From the IMG/VR virus record IMGVR_UViG_3300027586_001442, positions 1 through 54,992 of that record: a DNA stretch of 54,992 nt. One strand, 5' to 3'. This document shows positions 6,506 to 50,304 of the stretch, piece by piece; positions within the stretch are counted from its first letter, which is position 1; each line of letters opens with the position of its first letter. Position numbers and translations under genes: made by a program. The notes below the pieces were generated by a model that saw only the letters and a list, made by a program, of their open reading frames with translations, was not told the origin of the DNA and made no database searches. The DNA is from a virus. Its lineage: Duplodnaviria > Caudoviricetes.

Positions 6506-8485
6506 TTAGGTTGAACTGCTAGCCGTGACATCTGCCGAGCCACCGGCATACCCAGATCTCGCATTCATGATCGTCGCGGTTGAACTCGTTCCAGGAGCCA
6601 CGCCGGTCACCGTGACCAGGCCAGTTCCGCTGATCGCTACCGAGCCCGATGCCGTTGCCGTACCGAACCATATGTAGGCGGCGTCATAGTTGCTGATCAC
6701 AACAGTGAAACCATCAGCCGTTGCTGTCGTGCTTCCAAATGTTGGAGTTAACGCAGCACCCGGCGGCGTGATCGCCGTGATATCTGCCGAGCCACCGGCA
6801 TACCCAGGCCTCGTCATCGTGATCGTCGCGGTTGAACTCGTTCCAGGAGCCACGCCGGTCACCGTGACCAAACCCGTGCTGCTGATCGCTACCGAGCCCG
6901 ATGTTACTGAACTGTCCCATGTGAAGTAGACGGCGTCGTAGTTGGTTATCTGGACCGTGAAGCCATCAGCCGTTACTGTTGTGCTTCCAAATTCTGGCAT
7001 CGGCGTTGGCCCCCACGCGTCCGGCATCGGCGTGAGCGTTGGCGTGGGTGTTGGCGTTTCTGGCATCGGCGTTGGTGGTATCCAAGGCCCCCACGCGTCC
7101 GGCGTGAGCGTTGGCGTGGGTGTTGGCGTTTGAGTTGGCGTGAGTGTAGGCGTTGGCGTTGAACTGCTTGAACTCGGGGATTCAGTGATAATCTCCGCGA
7201 CTTGACTTACTATCGTTTCTCCACCTAACACATAAAGTTCTACCCTATATTTTCTTCCCGGCACATACGATCCTGGGTTGGTTACAACCAACGAACCGTT
7301 AGCATTAATTATTCCATCTAAATTTATAGATGAAAAGAAAGTTCCTGCCGAGTCGGTCTCTAATAACCAAGTCACTCCATCATCGCTATATTTCCAAAGA
7401 CGATTTGGTATTTGTTTGCGAGTTTGATAAGAAAAATCAAACTCCACTTCTGACGACAAATATTGATTAGAAGGCTGTACAGTCCACTCAAAAGGCGTGG
7501 GCGTGGGTGTGGGCGTTTGAGTTGGCGTGCTTGTCAGTGTTGGAGTGAGTGTGGGCGTTGGTGTAGGCGGTGCGCTGCTTGAACTGCTTGAACTGCTTGA
7601 AACCGCGCCAGAGGAACTTGAACTGGACATGGCTTGTGGCGGGAGAATCATTTCATCAAAATCTATCCTTATCACATCGCTCGGCGAGAGCGACCTGTTT
7701 AGTTCAAACGTACCCTCCGCAGGGTTCTCCGATGCTATATTGGTGTTGATCCATGCGGCCGCGGGAAAGACGGCAATGCCACCCGAGTTGGGTATGGTGA
7801 CGGGGACGGACAAGTAGTTGAGAACCTTGACTGGAACACCCGTCATCCTCAGTCCGTTCACATAAACTCTGAGCGACCCCGTCTTGAACGGCGTGTTCAC
7901 CGCTGTGGTTCTGTAGTTTTTGAAGGTCGGTCCAGACGGAATGTCGTATGCAGGAATGAGGTTGTGGTTGTGCCTATGAGCCGCATCCGGCGGGAAAACG
8001 GAATGGAGGCGAACCGTATCTGGGTTCTGGAATTCCATGAATATTGTGGAAGACCTCCTGAACTTCAGCACTCCGTTGCTGCCTGAAGGCGGGATGGTTA
8101 CGAAATTATTTGATCCCGGCTCGTAGTCCTCTATCTCTATCTCCAGCTTGTTTGCCTCGCTCAAAACGCCCTGAAGCTTTGCGCGTTCACTATCGGTCAT
8201 GCGGACGAATCCGTCGCCATCCATGTGGCTTGCCATGCTGTGATTCGCGTCGTCCACCGCATCTGTCTTGATATTACCCGCCGCATCCAGCGAATTGTCA
8301 AGCCTGGCATTGAGGGATCCGGCACTGCCTGATGCCCCGCGGAGGATGTCGGTGTTTATGTCCACCTGTATGTTGACAAGGCCGATCCGGTCCAGGATGT
8401 TTCTCAGGGGAAGATTGTCATAGTGGACATGATAGGGCTGATCTGCCTGGTAAAGAACCTCGGGTATGCTTTGTATGTCGGGCAT
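6506..8485 (-). CDS. Modular virion/fibre protein: phage N-terminal part, Ser/PT linkers, Ig-like domain, duplicated beta-rich C-terminal domain
   Basis: SLRVYVNGLR...DVIRIDF phage module, then SSSSS/PTPT tracts, an Ig-like block (WTVQPS...WKYSDDGVTW...KYRV), and two copies of FGSTT.TADGFTV.I.NYDA.Y. Confidence 0.75.
   Translation of the reverse strand: MPDIQSIPEVLYQADQPYHVHYDNLPLRNILDRIGLVNIQVDINTDILRGASGSAGSLNARLDNSLDAAGNIKTDAVDDANHSMASHMDGDGFVRMTDSERAKLQGVLSEANKLEIEIEDYEPGSNNFVTIPPSGSNGVLKFRRSSTIFMEFQNPDTVRLHSVFPPDAAHRHNHNLIPAYDIPSGPTFKNYRTTAVNTPFKTGSLRVYVNGLRMTGVPVKVLNYLSVPVTIPNSGGIAVFPAAAWINTNIASENPAEGTFELNRSLSPSDVIRIDFDEMILPPQAMSSSSSSGAVSSSSSSSSSAPPTPTPTLTPTLTSTPTQTPTPTPTPFEWTVQPSNQYLSSEVEFDFSYQTRKQIPNRLWKYSDDGVTWLLETDSAGTFFSSINLDGIINANGSLVVTNPGSYVPGRKYRVELYVLGGETIVSQVAEIITESPSSSSSTPTPTLTPTQTPTPTPTLTPDAWGPWIPPTPMPETPTPTPTLTPMPDAWGPTPMPEFGSTTVTADGFTVQITNYDAVYFTWDSSVTSGSVAISSTGLVTVTGVAPGTSSTATITMTRPGYAGGSADITAITPPGAALTPTFGSTTATADGFTVVISNYDAAYIWFGTATASGSVAISGTGLVTVTGVAPGTSSTATIMNARSGYAGGSADVTASSST
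6526..6995 (-). repeat. About 250-bp direct repeat (two copies of an ~84-aa domain)
   Basis: ATCTGCCGAGCCACCGGCATACCCA at ~6530 and ~6782, with near identity extending ~200 bp. Confidence 0.9.
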
Positions 8486-27537: not shown

Positions 27538-28244
27538 AATTCAGAGAGTGGCTGTGTAAGATAGAGGAAGCCGGCGGCAACGTAAAGCAATCGGCTGGCG
27601 CCGGATCCAACACGGATAGAAGCGCCCTGTACGGCCTTTCTGCCCAGTACGGACACAGGGGAACCCAACTTCCTATAAGTTTGGGATTGAACAATAAGGC
27701 AACCGCATCTTTGATCGCCGGAATCGGATCGGGAATCGGAGCGTCTCTGGACAGTTCGGGTTTTTCCGCTACCGCACCTCCAAACATAACGCCTTTCCCC
27801 ACGATGAAGAACCAGCTCGTCAGGCATTATTCCCTGCCGTTGCAACTCCCATACGAGGAAGGCGAGGACAGGCCAATCACCAAAGTATCAAACTCAAGTT
27901 ACAAAAGTCTCTTTATGAGACTTGGACAGATCATTCGGGACAGAGACCCTTTGAAGGATCCGAGGGTGAGACAAGCTGGGGACGATGGAAGCGAGGGGGG
28001 CAAGTTCAGACTCCCGAACAAGAACGACTACACCGAGATGTCACAAGCCAAGGAATTCACCAGGGGACTGATACACATGGTCATAGCCAACCAACTCTTC
28101 GGAGAGGGCATGATGGGCAAATACGACCTTCAGAACCCGGCAGTCGAGGCCGAGGGCACGAGGGAAGGCATGTTCATCTGCGCCCTGTCCTTCAAGAGAC
28201 TCAATGACATTCCCGACAACATCGGAAATAGGGAGGAAGAATGA
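27534..28244 (+). CDS. Hypothetical protein, putative internal head protein
   Basis: ATGA-coupled start MKFREWLCKIEEA at 27534. Confidence 0.7.
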   Translation: MKFREWLCKIEEAGGNVKQSAGAGSNTDRSALYGLSAQYGHRGTQLPISLGLNNKATASLIAGIGSGIGASLDSSGFSATAPPNITPFPTMKNQLVRHYSLPLQLPYEEGEDRPITKVSNSSYKSLFMRLGQIIRDRDPLKDPRVRQAGDDGSEGGKFRLPNKNDYTEMSQAKEFTRGLIHMVIANQLFGEGMMGKYDLQNPAVEAEGTREGMFICALSFKRLNDIPDNIGNREEE

Positions 28245-29746
28245 AGTCATTTGGCGAATTCGTAGCGGATAAAAAGTCGCTTTTGGCTGAAGCTGAAAAA
28301 TCAAAGGGCGACTGGAAAAAAGAGTATGTGAAGTTGGAGAAGGGTTTCGTACCCCCGAGCAACATGAGGCCCGTAGTGCAGGCGTTCCTTGACAGCGGCA
28401 GCATAGAACTCACCTCCGACACTTCCTCCAAGGTGACCATGCCCAAGAAGTCTCTGTTTCTTGTCGGGGGACCTGTGAGGGATTTCCTTCTCGGCAAGAA
28501 GCCCAAGGACCTTGACATGGCAACGAACGCAACCCCCGAACAGATCGCAATGATTCTCCATAATGCCGGATTCTGCATAGTAAAGGAGGACCCCGATTGG
28601 GATCTTCCTTTCAAGTCCAGAGTCTGCGGTGACGACAAGAAGAAATATTATCTCAAGGGGAGAGACTCAACGGGCAAGCCGTTCGTCATAGGCGCGGTCG
28701 TCAACGGCGAGGAGTTTGACATAGCGACCTTCAGAAAGGACGCCAAGACAGTCAACGGCCAGTCGGAGGTTGACTTCGTGGACAATCCCCATGAGGACGC
28801 CGCCCGCAGGGATCTCACCATCAACGCCATGTACATAGAACTCAACAAGGCTGAAGGAGATAACACAAAGCTCTACGACCCGACCAAACAAGGATACCAC
28901 GACGTCCACAGCAACAAGGTGAGAACCGTGGGCAAGGCCGAGGAGCGATTCGGCGAGGACAAGCTCAGGGTCATGAGGGCAATCAGATTCCAATGCAAGT
29001 TCGGAAAAGACCAGCCGATTGACCCGGAAATAAAGGCCGCAGTCCCCAAGTTCATAGATCTTGAAGGCGTGGCCCTAGAACGCGTAAGGGAGGAGTTCCT
29101 CAAGGGGCTTGACGATTCCGAGATAGATCCCAAAAAGTATGTTTCGCTCTATTCTTCCATGGGACTTCTCAAGAAAGTCCTTCCCGGAGTTATTTTGAAC
29201 GTCAACGTGCCCACGCAGCTCAGGGACAAAAAAGACAGATTCCTTTCGCTCGCATGGATACTTCAAGACAATCCGGTGGAGAAAGTGGAGGCCGTTCTTT
29301 CGCCCTCGAGATCCCAGGGCGGAAAGGAAGTTAACACGGGGTGGTCCAACCAGGAGAGAGGCATAATATCCTACCTTCTGAAACTGAAGGAGTTTGATCC
29401 GGACAACCTGGAGGAACTCCTGAATAAGAAGAAAATTCTTGGCGTCACGAAAGACCAGATAAAGAGGTGGGTTGATCTTTTTGACGTGGTGGACGGATCG
29501 CAGGTGAGAAGCGTCCGTCCCAACTGGTCAAAGAGGGTCAGATCGTTCGCAGATTTCAGCCCGGATCCCACCAAGCTTGTGAGCTGGTTCTCCCGTGACG
29601 AGGGCGGCAAGCCGACCCAGGAGATACATCCGGAAATAAGGATGCAGAACCTTGCCGACGTGCCTCCCCACTTCCGTGGATCTGTGGTGAAGGATATGAA
29701 CAAAAAGAGGCTCCGCCAGATGTTCAACGACATTGAGGCCGCCTGA
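28241..29746 (+). CDS. cca: CCA tRNA nucleotidyltransferase (class II, PcnB/CCA family)
   Basis: LVGGPVRDFLLG..PKDLDMAT, DAARRDLTINAM, RFGEDKLRVMRAIRF (EDxxR nucleotide template), ERVREEF. Confidence 0.88.
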   Translation: MKSFGEFVADKKSLLAEAEKSKGDWKKEYVKLEKGFVPPSNMRPVVQAFLDSGSIELTSDTSSKVTMPKKSLFLVGGPVRDFLLGKKPKDLDMATNATPEQIAMILHNAGFCIVKEDPDWDLPFKSRVCGDDKKKYYLKGRDSTGKPFVIGAVVNGEEFDIATFRKDAKTVNGQSEVDFVDNPHEDAARRDLTINAMYIELNKAEGDNTKLYDPTKQGYHDVHSNKVRTVGKAEERFGEDKLRVMRAIRFQCKFGKDQPIDPEIKAAVPKFIDLEGVALERVREEFLKGLDDSEIDPKKYVSLYSSMGLLKKVLPGVILNVNVPTQLRDKKDRFLSLAWILQDNPVEKVEAVLSPSRSQGGKEVNTGWSNQERGIISYLLKLKEFDPDNLEELLNKKKILGVTKDQIKRWVDLFDVVDGSQVRSVRPNWSKRVRSFADFSPDPTKLVSWFSRDEGGKPTQEIHPEIRMQNLADVPPHFRGSVVKDMNKKRLRQMFNDIEAA

Positions 29747-37497: not shown

Positions 37498-39960
37498 TCA
37501 CGCGGGTACAAAAGGACCTTCGCCTGTGGGGTTGGAAGAGACCGGAGTGGGGTCTGCGTCGCTTTGAGTCGCGTACTTCCAGTATCCGCCTAGTCCCCCA
37601 TTTTTGGCCATCGAGAAGTATGCGGCCTTGTACCATTCGTTTTCTGTTGGAATCCAATACGAAGCCCCGGAAATCTTTGTCGCGCTTGTTCCACTGATGG
37701 CGTAGGCCCCGTTTTCTGTGGTGCTTGCGTTTTGTAATCCGGTCGGCCTGCCGTTGTGCAGCCAATTGCAGTACCTGGCGCATGCCAACCAGTTGACAAA
37801 GTTCACGGGCTTGCCTCCCATGCTGGCCTTGACGGAATGAAAATAACTCCCAGCAACGCTACTGCGGGTTATTCCTCCGCGGGATTCACTGGCCATGTTC
37901 GTGCTGTAGAGTCCATAGGTGTCCGTAGACGCCACGGCATTCAAAAATTCAACATACTGACTTTGAGTTACAGTATATTTGGAAATTTGATAGGTATAAT
38001 TAACAGAGCCGTACGCGGTGGTGTCGGCCGATCCGAGTACATCTCCCACACTTACGAAGTCTGAAATGCTCAATGGATTAAGGGAACTCGCCACTCTGAA
38101 TCCAACATCATATGACCTGTTGCTCACTCCGTAGAAAGTTCTGTATGAACTAGAGATATAGAAAGTCTGAAAATCCACAGATGGAGCGACGCTGACCCAA
38201 GAGCCACCGCGAATGCACCGGCTCGTTCCCGATGCGGCCTCGTTCCACTCCCAAACATTTCCGCTCTGATCCAATGTTCCGTAATAGCTGGGACCTCCGT
38301 TTGTTCCCACGGTCGTCAGGTTTCCATCCTGCCCGTTCCAGTCCGCCACTCTGTTGTAATTGGCGTAATTGTACCCAATTTGCGTGGGCGTTGGTGTCTG
38401 GGTTGGTGTGGCTGTAGCCGTTGGAGTTGAAGTAGGTGTCTGGGTTGGCGTGGCTGTCGCTGTAGGTGTTGAAGTAGGTGTCTGAGTTGGCGTGGCTGTT
38501 GCCGTGGGCGTTGAAGTTGGTGTGGCTGTCGCCGTAGGCGTTGCCGTAGGTGTCTGGGTTGGTGTGGCTGTCGCTGTAGGTGTTGCCGTAGGTGTCTGGG
38601 TTGGTGTGGCTGTTGCCGTTGGAGTGCGTGTGGGTGTGGCTGTAGCCGTTGGAGTTGGAGTTGAAGTAGGTGTCTGGGTTGGTGTGGCTGTCGCTGTAGG
38701 TGTTGCCGTAGGTGATGAAGGATTTACAAGCGTCAAAACTCCGACTGGAACACTAATCGTATTGTTTCCACTTGGTGTCATAGCGGGCCATGTGGAACTT
38801 ATTCCATTGGCAGTTCCGGAACTCGCATTTCCTGTGTACTGATATACCGGCCTTCCATTTACAATCAAATGTCTGTTCAGGCCTTCTGTAATTGTTGCAG
38901 ATATACCCGCACCCACTTGAAGTGCGCCTTGTATAAGAACATACGGCCACGCCGATCCCGCGTAGGAAGGAGACGAGTTTGAGTCGGGAGCAAATTTGTA
39001 TATGGTCCTCAATTGTGATGTCGCCGAACCACCACTGGTGGGGCCAGCATACGCATTTGAAACTTGCAAATATTCATTTCCAACATCATCATATGATATG
39101 TGAAGCGTGGTGTTGATATCTTGCTCTGCTTGCGTGGAAGTCGGAGTGTTTGTGGGCGTTGCTGTGAGAGTAGGGGTGGAAGTCGGAGTGCTTGTGGGCG
39201 TTGCTGTGAGAGTAGGAGTGGAAGTTACAGTAAGTGTCGGGGTCGGAGTCGGCGTGGGTACGAGCGGATAGAAGTCAACGCGACCCGGAGCGTTGAATGA
39301 CCCCACAAATGTTGACTGATATTCAACTGAACTCCCATTTGAAATTGCGGCGAATGCAAATGGCATTCCGAGGTAAGGATGAGTGAACGTAACCGTTGCG
39401 ACCTGAACATCCGACACATATATGTTCATGTTGGCAGGCAGGCCACTGAAGTCGTACAGGGAATTAAAAGAAAGAGTATTGCCCGGTTCGGAAACAAGCA
39501 CCACTCCAAATTGAGCGGGGGACACTCCGCCCGGAGGTGAAGTCATGACTATGTAGGGAGCGGGGGTGGAGGTCAGTGTGGGCGTGAGGGTCGGGGTCGG
39601 GGTCAGCGTAGACGTCGGTGTGCGAGTGGGCGTCGATGTCGGCGTGAGTGTGGGGGTCGGGGTCAGTGTGGACGTCGGTGTCGGTGTGGGAGGCAACAGA
39701 TTCGGAGGTACCTGATCGGGTTCCGAATAAAGAACGTATCCAAGATTGTTTCTGTCGCTTTGCAAGAAGTAGAATTCAAACTTTTCCAAAGAGTCAAATG
39801 AATTGAATATTGAATCGCTTTCCCAAAGATCCAAAGAAAGTCCGTCCGCGCTGACCTTCCAAGCCGCAATCATGTAGGGCCGGCCCAGCAGAGAGTCTAT
39901 TGGCCGAGAGTCAGTCAAAAACTGTATGAACTCCAATTTTCTCGTGATTACCTTCGGCAT
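37498..39960 (-). CDS. Modular adhesin-like protein (820 aa): PT linkers, GRVDF domain, COG4315-like domain, circularly permuted FGE/CLec domain
   Basis: GNVWEW...RGGSW...GFRVAS precedes [18 protein letters not shown]...[11 protein letters not shown]; long (TP/TA)n tracts. Confidence 0.85.
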
Positions 39961-39968
39961 CGCTCTCC

Positions 39969-42900
39969 TTAGAAATCCACCCTTCCATCGGCCTCAAAGG
40001 AACCCAGGTATACAGCTCCAGTACTTCTTGTGAATTTGAACCCTTGGCCGATGTAAGCATTCGTCACGGAAAGTGAGGCGACCTGCACGTTTGACACCCA
40101 TATTTTGATGCTCGTGAACGATTGAGACCCGGTTGAACTTATCGTGTTGTAAGAAATGCTGCTGCCCGCGGTGGAATTAAGAGTTATTCCGTCTCCGTTG
40201 ACCGTGCTCGTCCCAGTTGGAATCGTGATAGTGGTGTTGTAGATTGAGCCATTGTTTGTTGGTGTCAATGTAGGTGTGGGAGTTTGAGTTGGCGTGGGTG
40301 TGCTTGTACTTGTCGGAGTCAATGTGGGCGTCGGGGTTGGTGCTATTACGCTCAAATATATGAATTCACTCTCTACCGCATATCCCTCTCTTGAGTCACT
40401 ACTAATCACTACAAAACGAGCATTGTTCAATGATGAGGTTGCCGTAAATCTTAAGTAGCCAACAATCGCTCCTGGCCCCGTGCCATTAGCGATTTGAGAA
40501 TTTTCATAGTCTGGATGGATGTATGTGATGTTATCACCTTGGAATTCCACTATGGTAGTCCATTGAGATTGAACCGGGTCAAAAACTCTCCAATGTGTAA
40601 TTTGTGGAAACTCATAAGATGAATTAACCAACATCATAGTGTAATCAAGGGTAACAGACGATCCAAGCTCTGCCACCCTTGGATTTTCAGCCGAACTGGG
40701 AAATTGTTGTGGCAAGAAATAGGCGCCAACTGGCTCTGTCGGTGTTTGAGTCGGCGTGAGTGTAGGCGTGCTTGTCCTTGTTGGCGTGAGTGTAGGCGTT
40801 GATGTAGGAGTCGGAGTCGGAGTCGGAGTGGGGGTTGGCACAGGACAGGACGAGATGCTTGCGAGACGAAAACCGATGATGCTGCTCCCGAACGACAGAC
40901 CGATGAAGTTGCGACTCGAGGACGACACAACGCTGGAATAGTTGCCCCAATTGCCGCCCCGGAGCCCACGAGACGACCCGGCGGTGCCATCCAGATCGTT
41001 CCACTGAGATACGTTGCCTGTTTGGTCAAAAGTGCCGTAGAAACTTCCGCTGCCACTAAACGAGTCCACGTCAGTACTGTGGCCGATGGCACCATTGTAG
41101 TTGGCCTGATTGGCACTGCTGCCGATCGTGGTGCCGGGGGCAGAGTTACTCTGCGTGGCGAAAGCATAGTAGCCGCCGATACCAGAGCCACCGTAATTGG
41201 GCGAGTAGTACGCCGCCTTGTACCACTCGTTCTCAAGCGGTATTCGGAATATCGGAGCCAAGCCCGTATTCGGGTTGGTGGCGTTGGCGGCCACGGCATT
41301 GCCTGAAGTGGCGCCGTTCAAGTTGTAAGCGCCGTTTTCAGTCGTCGTGCTGGTCTGGGCTCCGCTTGGCTGGCCGTTGCTCATCCAGTTGGAAAACCTC
41401 GCACAGTCAAACCAGCTCACATACGAAATCGGACGGTTGCCAGTGCTGTTTAGAACGGTGTACGTGTAACTTCCAGTGGTGCCAGAGCGGCTGATTTGGG
41501 CAACATCGGTGTCTGTGCCCATGCTTGCGTTGTAGAGACCGTAGGTGTCGGTCGCGGCTACGGCATTTAAGAACGCCGTGTACTGCGAGCCCGTCACGTC
41601 GTACTTCCCGATCTGGTACGAGTACGACACGGCACCATACAGGCCGTCGGCGGCGTTGCCAGGATTGCCAACCGTCACCATAGTCATATTAAATAGGGGC
41701 GTGTCGGTGGCGTCTCCATCTATTGTCGCCTGAACTGGTTTTGGAATCAAATCGCTTTGGGTAGCATAAACCCAATAGCCAGCATTAGTACTTCCACCCT
41801 TATAATAAGCCGCTTTATACCATTCATTTTCATTGGGAATGTAATAGAGAGCTCCGGAATTTTTAGTTACAGCATTTTGACCAGTTAGTTCAACTAGCGT
41901 ATATGCCCCAGTTTCTGTACTGCCATTACCCTTCTCGTTATGAAGCCAATTACAATATCGGGCGCAGTCAAACCAAGAAACATAATTTACTGGTTTGTTT
42001 TCATAGTTGTTTTTCACAACATAGGTATAACCTCCAGAACTTCCAGATCTAGTAATTCCCCCTCTGGAAGCACCCATATTCGCATGATATAATTCATGAG
42101 AGTCGGTTTTGGCCACAGCATTCAAAAATTCAGCATACTCGGTGTTGGTAACAAGAAGCGCTCCAATTTTATAATCATAAGCAACGGCACCATAACTGGG
42201 GTAACTACTACTGCTGGACGAACTGCCGCCACGGCTCGTATCAGCGGCGTTCTCGGCATCTCCCACATCTACAAAATTAGGAAGACCTAAAAGATTAAGA
42301 GAGGATGCGATACGAAAACCTATGGTGACGGCGTACCCGTACGGCGGGGCCAAGTTGTTGTGATACGAGGACGACAAGCTGTCGGAACTGTTGCTCCAGC
42401 TGCCGCCCCGGTAGCCAACATGACCCATATTGAGTGGCTGGTACAGATCATACCATTGAGATACGTTGCCGGTTTGGTCATATGTCCCATAAGCAGAAGG
42501 CCCGCCATTGGTTCCAACACTTGTGACGTTACCATCTTGACCGTCCCAGTCCGCAACGCTGTTGTAGTTACCAGAATTGCATCCTGCTATTATGCCGGAC
42601 GAACTGCTGCTGGATGAACTGCTGCCGGACGAACTGCCGCTGGATGAACCGCCGCTGGATGAACTGCTACTGGATGAACTGCTACTGGATGAACTGCTAC
42701 TGGATGAACTGCTACTGGATGAACTGCTACTGGATGAACTGCTACTGGATGAACTGCTACTGGATGAACTGCTACTGGATGAACCACCGCCGCTGGATGA
42801 ACTGCTACTGGATGAACTGCTACTGGATGAACCACCACCGCTGGATGAACCGCTACTGGATGAACTGCTACTGAATGAGCCGCTACTGGATGAACTGCTA

Positions 42901-45341
42901 CTGAATGAACCGCCGCTGGATGAACTGCTGCTGCCGCTGCTGATGCTTGAGCCACCACCACCATTTGGCCCGCCACCGCCGTCGTCACCAGATGCCTCAC
43001 ATCCCGTGTTGTCGCCGTTTGCTTTGTAGCCCTCTTCGCAATAGCATGATCCATCATTGCCCAACACGGTGTTCGCGGGACATCCACCTGGTCCTGGTCC
43101 TGGTCCTGCACCACCTGGACCACCACCTGGCACGCCACCACCACCTGGCACGGCACCACCACCATTTGGCCCGCCACCGCCGCCACCCGGTCCAACCGGG
43201 CCTGCCTCTCCCTGTGCGGGGCAACCGGCGAGCGAGAATACGTCCGCCATGAAATCAGCCGGTACCGGCTGTCTGGTCGCGTTGCACAAGCACAAGCATT
43301 CGCCTTGGAAAACTCCGCCCGTCTGTCCGACAGGGCATTCCTTCAGATTTGGAACGCACTTGGTTCTACCAATTTCATCAGGATCGGGGACTAACTTCTG
43401 GCAAGGGTTTGTGCATTTGCACTCGCATTCGCCATTTAAAACCTCGCCCGTCTGTCCGACAGAGCAAAATGGCACGCACTCGTCTCCGTCTTGATTCCCC
43501 AACATAAACTCGCAAGGATCTGTGCACTTGCAGTCACCGGCTACGCAAGTTGATCCGGCCGGACACGTCTTGGGAACACATACTCCATCTTCATTTTTTT
43601 CTTCACACGGGCCAACACATGCGCATTCGCAAGGAGAAGGGCCGGAGTCTGAATTTCGTTCTTGTCCGTCCGGACATGCTGGATGGCATTTTTGGCCGCA
43701 ATATGTTTCGGGGTCAACGCACGCGACACAATCTCCGGTATTAGGATCCCTCGCTGGAGTGGGATCGGAGCAAATGGGTGCGCAACGTTCTGAATTCTGT
43801 CCTTGTTTATTCCATATTGTTGTTCCCGGAGGGCAACATTGGCAAGGCGTGTCATCGCCGCCAGAGTACCCCTCGGCATTCAGTCTTCCCGGCCCGCCAA
43901 CGGCGCATGGCTCGTAACACTCACTGCTACAGTTCACCATGCCATTGACGGGGGATACATCAGTTCCGCCGTAGCAATCTTTGCATTCGCACTCATTTGT
44001 TTGGGAATTAAACTTCGGGGCCTTGTCCATACCACACTGGTCCACACACTCGCCTGTCGGAGAACCATAACACAGTTGTTCTTCACAAGGACAAATACCC
44101 GCCGGATCGGGCTGGGAACAGCTGGACGAGCCAGGTGTCAATGTGAGCGTTGGCGTGGGTGTTTGAGTTGGCGTGAGTGTTGGTGTTTGATTTGGCGTTG
44201 ATGTCGGCGTGAGTGTGGGGGTTGGGGTCGGGGCTTTACAAGCCTTGTAGCACGCGTCATAGGTCTTGAATTCGGCCGAACCATTCACCTCTTTGCATTC
44301 TAAATTCACGCAATCGTAGTTTGCGCAACCCAACTTGAGGCATTCCTCTTCGGAGCTATATGATCCCTGGGGGTCTTGTTCGCATTTATATGTAAAGGTG
44401 TTGCATTTGTATTTAAATTCGCTTGCGCTTGCTGTTGGCGTTAGTGTTGGCGTTGGTGCCGGTGTTTGTGTTGGCGTCGTGCATGGGTATCCGTATACAT
44501 TTTTGCACGGCACTAGACCGCCGGTATACGTATTTTCTCCGCACTGACAGCAGCAATCCCGTTCGCTATCATATTGACCGTCTACTCTCTTTTTGCAAGT
44601 TCCATTTATACATGAATATTTCGTACAACTGACCGCTTGCATTGTAACGCCATCAAAGGAAGTCGACGAGCATCTTCCTTCGGCGTAGGAGATTGCAAAT
44701 AGATCTCCTTCCAATTCGGCTCGCATAACATATTCTTCGTAGCAGCCATCTACGCAGCCACTTTCCTCACACCAGTTTACAATCTTGCAACTCGAGGATG
44801 ACGAACTTGAACCGCTTGAACTGGAGGTGCTAGAGGGTTCTTTGGGCTCTTTGGGCTCTTCGGACGACGAACTTGAGCCCGACGAACTTGAACCCGACGA
44901 GCTTGAACCCGACGAACTTGAACCCGACGAACTTGAACCCGTGGAGCTTGAACCCGTGGAGCTTGAACCCGTGGAACTTGAACCCGTGGAACTTGAACCC
45001 GTGGAACTCGAGGATTCCGATGTGCTCGAGGATTCCGACGTGCTTGAACCCGACGTGCTTGAGGGATCGGGTGGATTGGGTATTTGCCTGCAAACCCCGT
45101 CGGCTCCAAAGGTGAATATCGTTTGGGCGTTCACCGTCGGCACTTCCGAAGAAGATTCCAAGGGCATTCCTGCAAGATAACCCATGGGCGCGCCCACGCC
45201 CACGCAACCCTCTTTGCATGCAAACCCAACAGTCCAGTTTGGGACCCTGCATTCTGCGGTGGTAGAGCTTCCTTCGCTATGCTTATCTAGCGTGAATACC
45301 AGTTCCTCGAATAATTTTCTGATGTTTTGGCCAAGTCTCAT
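39969..45341 (-). CDS. Giant mosaic adhesin-like protein (1790 aa): Cys-rich repeats, poly-Ser, permuted plus canonical FGE/CLec domains, Ig-like domain, GRVDF domain
   Basis: Continuous ORF; two ENEWYKAAY and two GNVSQW...RGG.W...GFR motif sets; many CxC and CP.G repeats. Confidence 0.88.
42595..42935 (-). repeat. 15-bp tandem array coding poly-Ser/Gly
   Basis: TGGATGAACTGCTAC and variants, about 22 units, with a perfect run at ~42655-42785. Confidence 0.95.
44865..45062 (-). repeat. 15-bp tandem array coding [10 protein letters not shown]
   Basis: GAACTTGAACCCG(AC/TG) units, plus a few 18-bp variants. Confidence 0.92.
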
Positions 45342-49263: not shown

Positions 49264-50304
49264 ATGCGTCTCTTGGAACTTTTCTCCGGTATAGGAGCCC
49301 AGTCAAAAGCCCTGAAGAATCTGGGCGTGGATCATCAGGCGATAGCGTGTGAAATTGACAAGCGCATACACGCGGTTTACGAGTCAATCCACGGACCCAC
49401 GCCAAACTTGGGCGATATAACTAAAGTTCAGTCTTTGCCGGAATGCGATATTCTCACCTACTCTTTTCCTTGCCAGGATCTCTCCATACTGGGCAACAGA
49501 AAGGGTCTGGAAAGGAATTCCGGAACGCGTTCAAGCCTTCTGTGGGAGGTGGAGAGATTGCTCAGGGCGAGCGACAGACTGCCTGATATTCTCGTCCTTG
49601 AAAATGTGAAACAGCTCGCATCTCCGAAACACACGGCGAATTTTCAGCTCTGGCTTAAGACATTAGAGAGCATCGGGTACAAAAACTCGTGGAAGGTCGT
49701 CAGTTCCGGGGACTTTGGGCTCCCCCAGAAAAGGGAGAGGGTCTTCGTGGTATCCTCTTTGAAAGAGGAGTTCGTTTTCTCCGAGGGATCAAAGGGGGCG
49801 AGGTTGGGGGAGTTCATGAAGGGCGACGCCGAAGTCCGTGCCGAATACGGCGACAGTCTCCATTTCAGATGTCCTAAGATGGCGGAAAGAATCTGGAAGA
49901 CAATAAACAACACCCAGTCCACGAACAGCACCAACAGGATTTACGGGAAAAAGGGAGTCACGCACGCCCTCACTACGCAGGGAAGCCATCCTGGCAACTT
50001 CGGGGCCGTACTTTACTCATCGGAACTAGACGACAATTTCCCATTGCGTGAAAAGACCAAGGGATTGAGCATGGAAAATCTCAAAAAGAAGAGCCTTGGT
50101 TTTGATATCAATTCCATAAGGCTAATGTCCCCTAGGGAGTCCATGCTTCTGATGGGATTCTCCGAGGAGGATTGCAATAATGCCAAGCAACACATGAAGG
50201 ATAGAAAGATGAAAGAAACATTCCTCTACCATGTTGCCGGCAACAGCATAGCCGTTCCCGTTCTGGAATCCATATTCAACTCTATTTTAGGCGGCTCCGA
50301 ATGA
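49264..50304 (+). CDS. DNA (cytosine-5) methyltransferase, orphan
   Basis: LELFSGIGA, SFPCQ, LENV, PQKRERVF, AGNSI motifs. Confidence 0.95.
   Translation: MRLLELFSGIGAQSKALKNLGVDHQAIACEIDKRIHAVYESIHGPTPNLGDITKVQSLPECDILTYSFPCQDLSILGNRKGLERNSGTRSSLLWEVERLLRASDRLPDILVLENVKQLASPKHTANFQLWLKTLESIGYKNSWKVVSSGDFGLPQKRERVFVVSSLKEEFVFSEGSKGARLGEFMKGDAEVRAEYGDSLHFRCPKMAERIWKTINNTQSTNSTNRIYGKKGVTHALTTQGSHPGNFGAVLYSSELDDNFPLREKTKGLSMENLKKKSLGFDINSIRLMSPRESMLLMGFSEEDCNNAKQHMKDRKMKETFLYHVAGNSIAVPVLESIFNSILGGSE

Follow-up and report, generated by a model that had tools for sequence, protein, structure and literature searches.

How can two segments of one phage protein differ at so many residues while the third bases of their codons stay the same, and what wrote them? 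The locus that raises this question lies in IMG/VR record IMGVR_UViG_3300027586_001442, a linear fragment of 54,992 nt from a virus of the Caudoviricetes, which was analysed in full and is called the window below; its CheckV completeness estimate of ~11% places ~89% of the phage genome outside it. A 1790-aa open reading frame (ORF), P0001, carries in its middle two segments of the type RGG.W...GFR. A sequence-only reading of the window had taken them for products of a diversity-generating retroelement (DGR), and we refer to them as the variable regions (VRs) VR1 and VR2. Based on codon comparisons and on a template repeat (TR) found on a related contig, we propose that VR2 is very probably of DGR origin and that VR1 is probably so too. 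With little more than even confidence, we lean towards a fuller reading, according to which these DGR-written regions are now orphaned and frozen on shuffled modules.

Codon pattern of the two segments

Each segment sits in a domain whose C-type-lectin (CLec) fold is of the FGE type, units 1 and 2 of P0001. Codon by codon, the two segments align throughout, except that VR1 has one codon more (ACC). Across the 34 aligned codons of their cores there are 18 amino-acid changes, 14 of which keep the third base. Third bases are identical at 29/34 positions (0.853), and 14 of the 15 identical residues have the identical codon (M and W left out). The sequence-only reading had counted 26 codons, and its description of a DGR-like pattern survives the recount: the codon pairs that it gave as examples are all present, TCC, TCG TCC TCG and GGG are unchanged as claimed, and both segments do lie mid-protein in the same ORF, not at the 3' end of the gene. 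The rest of the two units behaves differently. Between their N-halves, 21/74 identical residues share a codon and 46/156 third bases agree, and in the flank upstream of the core the figures are 10/19 and 22/42; Fisher's test of the core against the rest of both units returns p = 1.2e-5 on the codon counts (14/15 against 31/93) and 2.5e-8 on the third-base counts. In a control set of 887 homologous segment pairs of similar amino-acid identity from other viral loci, third bases agree at a mean of 0.345, and the value of 0.853 is attained by 0.68% of the pairs.

Could codon usage alone produce such a pattern? NNY codons make up 0.66-0.68 of all codons throughout these FGE domains, and the binding residues N, S, Y, D, F and G are mostly NNY-coded. 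An internal control is provided by a third FGE unit, at the end of the 820-aa ORF P0002. Its segment equivalent to the VRs (27/41 codons NNY) has the same conserved residues and different codons, identical at 2/15 positions with VR1 and 2/17 with VR2 (p = 2e-5 and 7e-6), and its third bases agree at 6/31 and 10/34 positions, respectively. Since the third unit encodes the same residues with other codons, the pattern that VR1 and VR2 have in common is not accounted for by codon bias.

A template repeat on a related contig

A degenerate search pattern with 22 specified bases, built only from bases common to VR1 and VR2, gave five matches in metagenome contigs (L078-L082). One of these contigs, L081 (2228 nt), has three elements in a row: an Avd gene (100.1 bits with NF033474, cut-off 80; also PF22296), a reverse transcriptase (RT) gene (RVT_1, 72.4 bits against a cut-off of 29.6, with a YMDD box and an IGNLTSQ motif) and an AAY-rich template repeat of 125 nt that begins 24 nt past the RT stop. 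The 102-nt core of this repeat (1661-1762) is RGGNWNNNSNNVSSSNRNNNDPSNENNNIGFRLA and holds 14 AAY codons. From the window alone, the sequence-only reading had inferred an AAY-rich template, and the L081 TR is compatible with all 24 of the inferred codons (19 leading, 5 trailing).

VR2 aligns with the L081 TR without gaps and differs from it at 17/32 adenine sites and at 3/70 other sites (Fisher p = 4e-8). VR1 differs at 15/32 adenine and 7/70 other sites and has one extra codon in the AAC run. For both VRs the differences are concentrated at template adenines, although the template is that of a relative and does not come from this genome. The VRs of the related contigs give similar counts: 18/32 adenine and 0/70 other sites for L079d, 20/32 and 1/70 for L080, 17/32 and 2/70 for L079e, and 12/32 and 2/70 for L082. 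The segment of the third FGE unit, which is without the DGR nucleotide scaffold, differs at 17/32 adenine and 25/70 other sites, and homologues in viral records in which no RT was found differ at 12-18/70 non-adenine sites. At the 14 AAY codons of the TR, VR2 has NNY in 14/14 cases and VR1 in 13/14; among distant homologues 838 of the 1079 codons at these positions are NNY. Judged by sequence, the L081 TR is a near-cognate of VR2 and the closest template found.

Did one template write both VRs? The sequence-only reading had derived the two from a template of one kind; the L081 TR fits VR2, but a single common template is not borne out, VR1 having its 7/70 non-adenine differences and its extra codon. 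Codon 12 is TTG in VR1 and in the six nearest permuted-domain segments (described below), and GTG in VR2, in the L081 TR and in all five related VRs. Near the 3' end, VR1 shares an ATC with L019 alone of the six nearest permuted segments. The possibility that one TR wrote both was rejected on the scaffold differences together with the unequal length, although RT slippage in the AAC run could explain the length. VR1 and VR2 are more likely the products of two related templates.

Searches of IMG/VR viral contigs with the VR/TR core pattern gave 0 matches, as did each of two TR-specific AAY patterns; there is thus no close TR or VR of this type in that collection, save in records possibly omitted by design. 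The VR2/TR core pattern also gave 0 matches in 185,579 species genomes.

Search for a writer within the window

No writer was found in the window, in agreement with the earlier observation that neither an RT nor a template was in view. A scan with the RVT_1 hidden Markov model over all 54,992 nt showed no reverse transcriptase, and tblastn with the L081 RT and Avd (E <= 0.01) gave no match in the window, while L009, L063 and many bacterial loci were matched as positive controls. In an ungapped scan of the window for a third copy of either segment, nothing except the other VR exceeds 50% identity. Permissive blastn, a check that had been recommended for the segments, returned within the window only VR1 and VR2 matching each other, with no AAY-rich third copy. 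A self-BLAST screen of 78 sources for adenine-biased repeat pairs gave none from the window; the seven loci in which it did find pairs hold mostly PT or low-complexity repeats. The distance from the VRs that was searched in this way, and in which no cassette lies, is 40 kb on one side and 14 kb on the other.

Target genes of the related contigs

By blastn, the unit 2 region (40858-41681) is 81-87% identical in DNA to FGE units on L078, L079, L080 and L082, and these four contigs also carry repeats like those at 6522-6997 of the window. In L080, L079d and L078 the gene ends with the VR; in L082 and L079e the ORF runs hundreds of codons past the VR into repeat domains. As the VRs of L082 and L079e are also internal, mid-protein VRs are a trait of this lineage. 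The repeats at 6522-6997 share 75-83% DNA identity with the tandem repeat domains (~85 aa each) that follow the internal VRs of L079 and L082, and the same repeat type fills a 2490-aa ORF of L002.

L080 and L081 overlap by 33 nt (100%), the first with its end and the second with its start, which gives the order target-avd-RT-TR. In L079 (3933-4200), ~92 nt with a perfect terminator-like inverted repeat replace the ~2.15 kb of avd-RT-TR of L080/L081, and beyond them the contig rejoins the sequence downstream of the L081 TR; L078 diverges ~40 nt before avd. The cassette is therefore present or absent between otherwise homologous target genes. L079 has two near-perfect VRs on one contig, one 37 and the other 35 codons long where the L081 TR has 34, so that unequal length alone does not exclude activity. 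For VR2, homology to both the TR and the related target genes ends with the 3' end of the VR. A TCCGGTC motif stands after all five related VRs; the 3' flank of VR2 is without this motif and is a coding PT linker.

A circularly permuted carrier domain and scaffolds without an RT

Unit 1, which carries VR1, is a circular permutation of the FGE fold, a conclusion drawn mainly from Pfam order and colinear homologues, with which a structure model agrees. Residues ~911-1021 of P0001 correspond to FGE-sulfatase positions 145-254, and residues 1022-1231 to positions 35-132. The unit departs in this way from the canonical order of the N- and C-parts of the fold: it opens with the C-terminal part, in which VR1 lies, and a linker then leads to the N-terminal part. 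In the viral loci that were fetched there are 79 colinear full-length matches to the permuted unit, several copies being possible per contig. An AlphaFold2 model of the unit (61 such sequences) is one compact domain with pLDDT 88.3 and pTM 0.88. In VIA-align, residues 101-303 of the model superpose on FGE-fold chains (CarF, PorK, TvpA and FGE) in their N-terminal parts (Z 5-6.2, modest), and residues 5-100 on the C-terminal part of 8vig, the FGE-like domain of EgtB (Z 5.3, modest). Foldseek of the model against the PDB gave no match at E <= 0.001; its top rows are FGE-fold chains with short alignments, headed by the TvpA chain 2y3c (rank 3 in VIA-align, Z 5.9), and short alignments are expected because the domain is permuted.

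Six permuted domains (L025, L011, L019, L021, L040 and L035) have the nucleotide scaffold of VR1, mostly NNC between fixed blocks. At identical residues, the codons shared with VR1 amount to 15/15 in the core and 72/146 in the rest of the domain for L025 (p = 6e-5), 13/15 and 73/140 for L040 (p = 0.013), and 12/15 and 61/134 for L011 (p = 0.014). For other permuted copies the core values are 1/15 (L039), 4/12 (L020) and 3/12 (L024), so the scaffold signature is not general to permuted copies. Most of these copies are without the DGR scaffold, which points to paralogy, and not to a retroelement, as the source of their diversity. In large phage contigs (loci L001-L077) the permuted FGE unit is common, with seven copies within ~20 kb of L020.

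Two phage records that are both estimated to be 100% complete, G021 (230 kb; L021/L086) and G035 (153 kb; L035/L083), hold one scaffold copy each, and no RT was found in either by RVT_1 or by a search with the L081 RT, a query that matches G009 at 4e-52. The sequence-only reading had named DGR-free homologues with the same third-position conservation among the observations that would count against it, and in part this is what is seen, since estimated-complete phage records without an RT carry the same scaffold. An RVT_1 scan of 39 related viral records gave 0 matches, a weak negative, as it missed the truncated RT of G009. In that record (L009, L131, L146), Avd and a truncated DGR RT at the record end were found by tblastn and protein search. 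Family scans can miss genes that are cut at contig ends, as the case of G009 illustrates.

The wider DGR clade

In species-representative genomes a TR-type pattern had 40 matches (L091-L130), 29 of them titled Planctomycetota or Verrucomicrobiota. Many of the 40 are TRs of the same scaffold, and the nearest have 9-14 non-adenine differences from VR1/VR2 over ~54-69 sites. The matches in Psychrobacillus, Ruminococcus and Fusibacter are Asn-rich repeats, not TRs. The RTs in nine bacterial loci are 52-57% identical to that of L081, and Avd in eight is 48-58% identical. A peptide-pattern search with the L081 RT alone matched four stretches, none of which was confirmed; an RT-alignment search gave 18 viral contigs, including small VR-avd-RT-TR units, whose TRs have 19-24 non-adenine differences from VR1/VR2 over ~70 sites. 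By these counts L081 provides by far the closest template, and the other TRs of the clade are to be seen as family members, not as the writer. The concentration of RGGNWNNN-type TRs in Planctomycetota and Verrucomicrobiota hints at the host range of the phage group.

Are the VRs still written?

Based on these observations, we propose a model in which an Avd-RT complex would copy an invariant TR into cDNA, misreading template adenines. The cDNA would then replace the homologous sequence coding for the ligand-binding face of a CLec domain of the FGE type; AAY template codons would become NNY, and the non-adenine bases, silent third bases included, would stay fixed. The writer would belong to the DGR clade common to lake viral contigs and to Planctomycetota and Verrucomicrobiota genomes. 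Two VR-bearing FGE modules, one of them permuted, would have been built into the middle of the 1790-aa protein, and the VRs would be frozen products of past retrohoming, probably from two related templates, spread by module shuffling. We infer that the writing took place in this lineage or in a donor lineage, and that it has ceased.

Why do we regard the VRs as orphans? There is no RT, Avd or TR in the window. The phage records G021 and G035, in which no RT was found, carry the scaffold, and among the related contigs L079 has the short hairpin-bearing stretch in place of the cassette, while L078 diverges before avd. The two VRs differ from each other in length and at scaffold positions, and VR1 is unchanged in other samples: contigs of three further runs, belonging to three other studies, match it with 0 differences, two over its full length and one over 84/105 nt. 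No hairpin was predicted downstream of either VR, and the TCCGGTC motif is missing after VR2. The hairpin search, over 70 nt from the last 15 nt of each VR, gave -0.7 kcal/mol for VR2 (z +1.96 against shuffles) and -4.5 kcal/mol for VR1 (z -0.61); after the related VRs none was significant either, so the 3'-hairpin rule perhaps does not apply to this clade. In the run that covers the window best, which may be the source sample, VR2 shows no change. Other contigs are uninformative on variation in VR2: those of X2 and X4, matching 40737-40887 and 40737-40872, end inside VR2 and also have unaligned ends in the PT linker, and a contig of 161 nt from X3 runs across VR2 and carries 12 differences, which may lie inside or outside VR2. 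The FGE region draws hundreds of contigs from relatives, to a depth of up to thousands, and the loose contig ends at 40947 represent many VR variants, which belong to these high-depth relatives.

Several points weigh against the view that the VRs are frozen orphans. The population comparison placed assembled contigs, not reads, on the window, and minor VR alleles would not show in it. The silent scaffold sites of VR2 have almost no drift from the TR (3/70), as expected if it was recently written. When VR2 is compared with its relatives, identical codons number 17/18, 17/17 and 17/19 in the core and 152/189, 161/194 and 163/204 in the flank (p = 0.08-0.54), and as the core is not significantly above the flank, the last writing of VR2 cannot be dated. 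The 7/70 of VR1 is not separable from the 3/70 of VR2 (p = 0.33) or from the 12/70 of the nearest homologues (p = 0.32), and under a protein-guided alignment VR1 itself differs from the L081 TR at 12/70 other sites. For G021 and G035, which are linear contigs, completeness is an estimate, and since the RVT_1 scan missed the RT of G009, RT-negative results are not absolute. With ~11% of the genome in the window, a cassette may also lie elsewhere.

This last point leads to the strongest alternative, which we consider possible but clearly less probable than a frozen state: both VRs would be live targets of the phage's own remote cassette in the unseen ~89% of the genome, VR1 perhaps by way of a second TR or of RT slippage. 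The 3/70 non-adenine differences of VR2 are near the 0-2/70 of the VRs of cassette-bearing relatives, and L079 has two near-perfect VRs of unequal length. According to Wu et al. (2018, PMC5758913), non-adjacent targets are documented, phage-associated ones lying nearly always <50 kb from the RT, and Avd, TR and RT act in trans from a plasmid. However, both the 40 kb on one side and the 14 kb on the other are free of a cassette, contigs of three further runs have an identical VR1, and orphan VRs do exist in the family, both in relatives and in RT-free phage records. The flanks also speak against live targets: neither VR is followed by a predicted hairpin, whereas Bordetella phage BPP-1 needs a 24-bp hairpin-forming element for efficient homing, as described by Guo et al. 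(2011, PMC3240598), and the 3' flank of VR2, a coding PT linker, is missing the motif that stands behind all the related VRs.

A bolder idea, and an improbable one in our estimation, is that large freshwater phages form a guild with RT-less, mid-protein VRs, some of them in permuted CLec domains, that would be rewritten by the DGRs of Planctomycetota or Verrucomicrobiota hosts or of small co-infecting elements, such as an L081-type cassette that comes and goes between neighbouring target genes. If it were true, retrohoming into internal VRs would need no non-coding hairpin of the kind thought to confine VRs to gene ends. For the window itself, the corresponding proposal is that VR1 and VR2 are live targets written in trans by the DGR of a Planctomycetota or Verrucomicrobiota host or of a co-resident element. 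Same-scaffold TRs, with RTs 52-57% identical to that of L081, are common in these bacteria, and estimated-complete phage records keep the exact scaffold without an RT. But even the nearest bacterial TRs have too many non-adenine differences (9-14/~54-69) for a cognate template, the VR2/TR core pattern is absent from the 185,579 species genomes scanned, and a literature search on this point brought up no phage gene written by the DGR of a host; we hold writing in trans to be very unlikely.

The least credible explanation dispenses with a retroelement and invokes gene conversion, or a conserved motif with biased codons and diversifying selection on binding residues: with two sequences only, each of their differences could be ascribed to a supposed adenine in the template, and NNY codons are common across the domains and at the TR-AAY positions even of distant homologues, but an independently found TR predicts the variable sites (17/32 against 3/70), the third FGE unit has the same residues with hardly any of the same codons, the rare codons GGT TTT CGT do not vary between contigs with domains of just ~55-60% identity, and identical codons fall from 14/15 in the core to 31/93 in the rest of the units.

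Features of the window

The only Pfam family found in P0001 is FGE-sulfatase (PF03781), with 126.3 bits against a curated cut-off of 23.3; when the protein is cut into pieces, these score 29.3, 43.4 and 69.2 bits. Among the neighbouring genes there are matches to tape-measure/tail-lysin families, to the OB domain of a baseplate spike and to tail-fibre or virion-protein families. P0001 is a putative adhesion or host-recognition protein, and the VR-type C-terminal stretch of its FGE units points to a binding role over an enzymatic one. P0001 and P0002 share a C-terminal-type domain ending in GRVDF. Coordinates are collected in Table 1.

Table 1. Positions of the two variable regions, their carrier units and other features in the window
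Feature	Position	Strand	Remarks
1790-aa ORF (P0001)	39969..45341	-	open throughout; Ser-rich and Cys-rich repeats with PT linkers, then two FGE/CLec units, a PT linker and ~296 aa without a Pfam match
FGE unit 1	41637..42599	-	residues 915-1235; circularly permuted; carries VR1
VR1 core	42306..42410	-	35 codons, residues 978-1012, inside permuted unit 1
FGE unit 2	40860..41648	-	canonical order, Pfam profile positions 36-254; VR2 at the end of the unit
VR2 core	40860..40961	-	34 codons, residues 1461-1494
Full stretch homologous to the L081 template repeat	40857..40981	-	125 nt
Tandem repeats of 15-nt period in P0001	42550-42992, 44786-45062		encode its poly-Ser and SSSG runs
PT-linker repeats in P0001	40245-40346, 40737-40838, 44136-44479
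820-aa ORF (P0002)	37498..39960	-	ends in the third FGE unit, also circularly permuted
VR-equivalent segment of the third unit	38089-38211	-	41 codons, RGG.W...GFR type
659-aa repeat-built ORF	6506-8485	-	no Pfam or PHROG match
Poly(A) polymerase/nucleotidyltransferase-head protein	28241-29746	+
C-5 cytosine DNA methylase	49264-50304	+

Comparison with known systems

DGRs with FGE-type CLec targets are established, and the core finding is a further DGR of known type; what goes beyond the textbook is the internal position of the VRs, the permuted carrier domain and the occurrence of VRs without a writer. What are the implications? Internal VRs in very long ORFs, found also beside a real cassette in relatives, stand against the C-terminal rule of the surveys. 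The permuted, VR-carrying form of the FGE/CLec domain is widespread, as its 79 colinear copies in the viral loci fetched indicate. DGR-formatted VRs occur without a writer in estimated-complete phage records, and at the same site the cassette is present or absent in close relatives. If the VRs are frozen, they record past hypermutation and the exchange of captured domains between hosts and phages; if the writing still goes on, DGRs can reach across replicons and modify internal targets, which would widen both their biology and their use for in-vivo diversification. RT-centred DGR surveys would miss all such loci. In the sections of a review of 224 jumbo phages that bear on this point (PMC7824862), no FGE-type domain is reported. 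A literature search returned no description of a circularly permuted CLec or FGE VR domain, although survey supplements may list related cases, and the terms tried gave no DGR paper on orphan, cryptic or degenerate VRs or on DGR loss.

Among known systems, the locus resembles the DGR of Bordetella phage BPP-1 (Mtd, avd-TR-brt) in the adenine-specific differences, in the CLec-fold binding domain and in the phage surface protein that carries it, and also in the Avd, RT and TR cassette, which is known here from the relative L081. In BPP-1, however, the VR ends the gene and is followed by the initiation of mutagenic homing (IMH) element and a hairpin, with the cassette adjacent, whereas here the VRs are internal and have no predicted hairpin. 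The target fold of BPP-1 is the Mtd subtype, unlike the FGE-sulfatase subtype of P0001. TvpA of Treponema denticola (PDB 2y3c) is closer in this respect, as it has an FGE-type CLec domain, and its VR sits in the RGG.W...GFR stretch. It differs in its canonical domain order, in its C-terminal VR and in having RT and TR in its own genome, whereas here one unit is permuted and neither an RT nor a TR lies in the window. Remote targets of the TvpA DGR are known (Wu et al. 2018, PMC5758913).

In the global survey of Roux et al. (2021, PMC8144416), as far as its account of targets extends, VRs at target C-termini are nearly universal, which is attributed to non-coding cis elements; the survey was unable to detect remote targets, and modular fusion of other domains to the C-Lec region was proposed. 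P0001 is like those targets in being a multi-domain protein with a C-Lec VR domain, and unlike them in that here, as in L082 and L079e, hundreds of codons follow the VR. Finally, the locus shares with the DGRs of Planctomycetota, Verrucomicrobiota and small lake viral contigs (L091-L130, L132-L139) a TR scaffold of the type RGGNWNNNSNN[LV]SSS.RNNN.P.NENNNIGFR, and the order target-avd-RT-TR is common to these DGRs and to L080/L081. In contrast to L081, with its 3/70, the TRs of those DGRs differ from VR1/VR2 at 9-25/~54-72 non-adenine sites.

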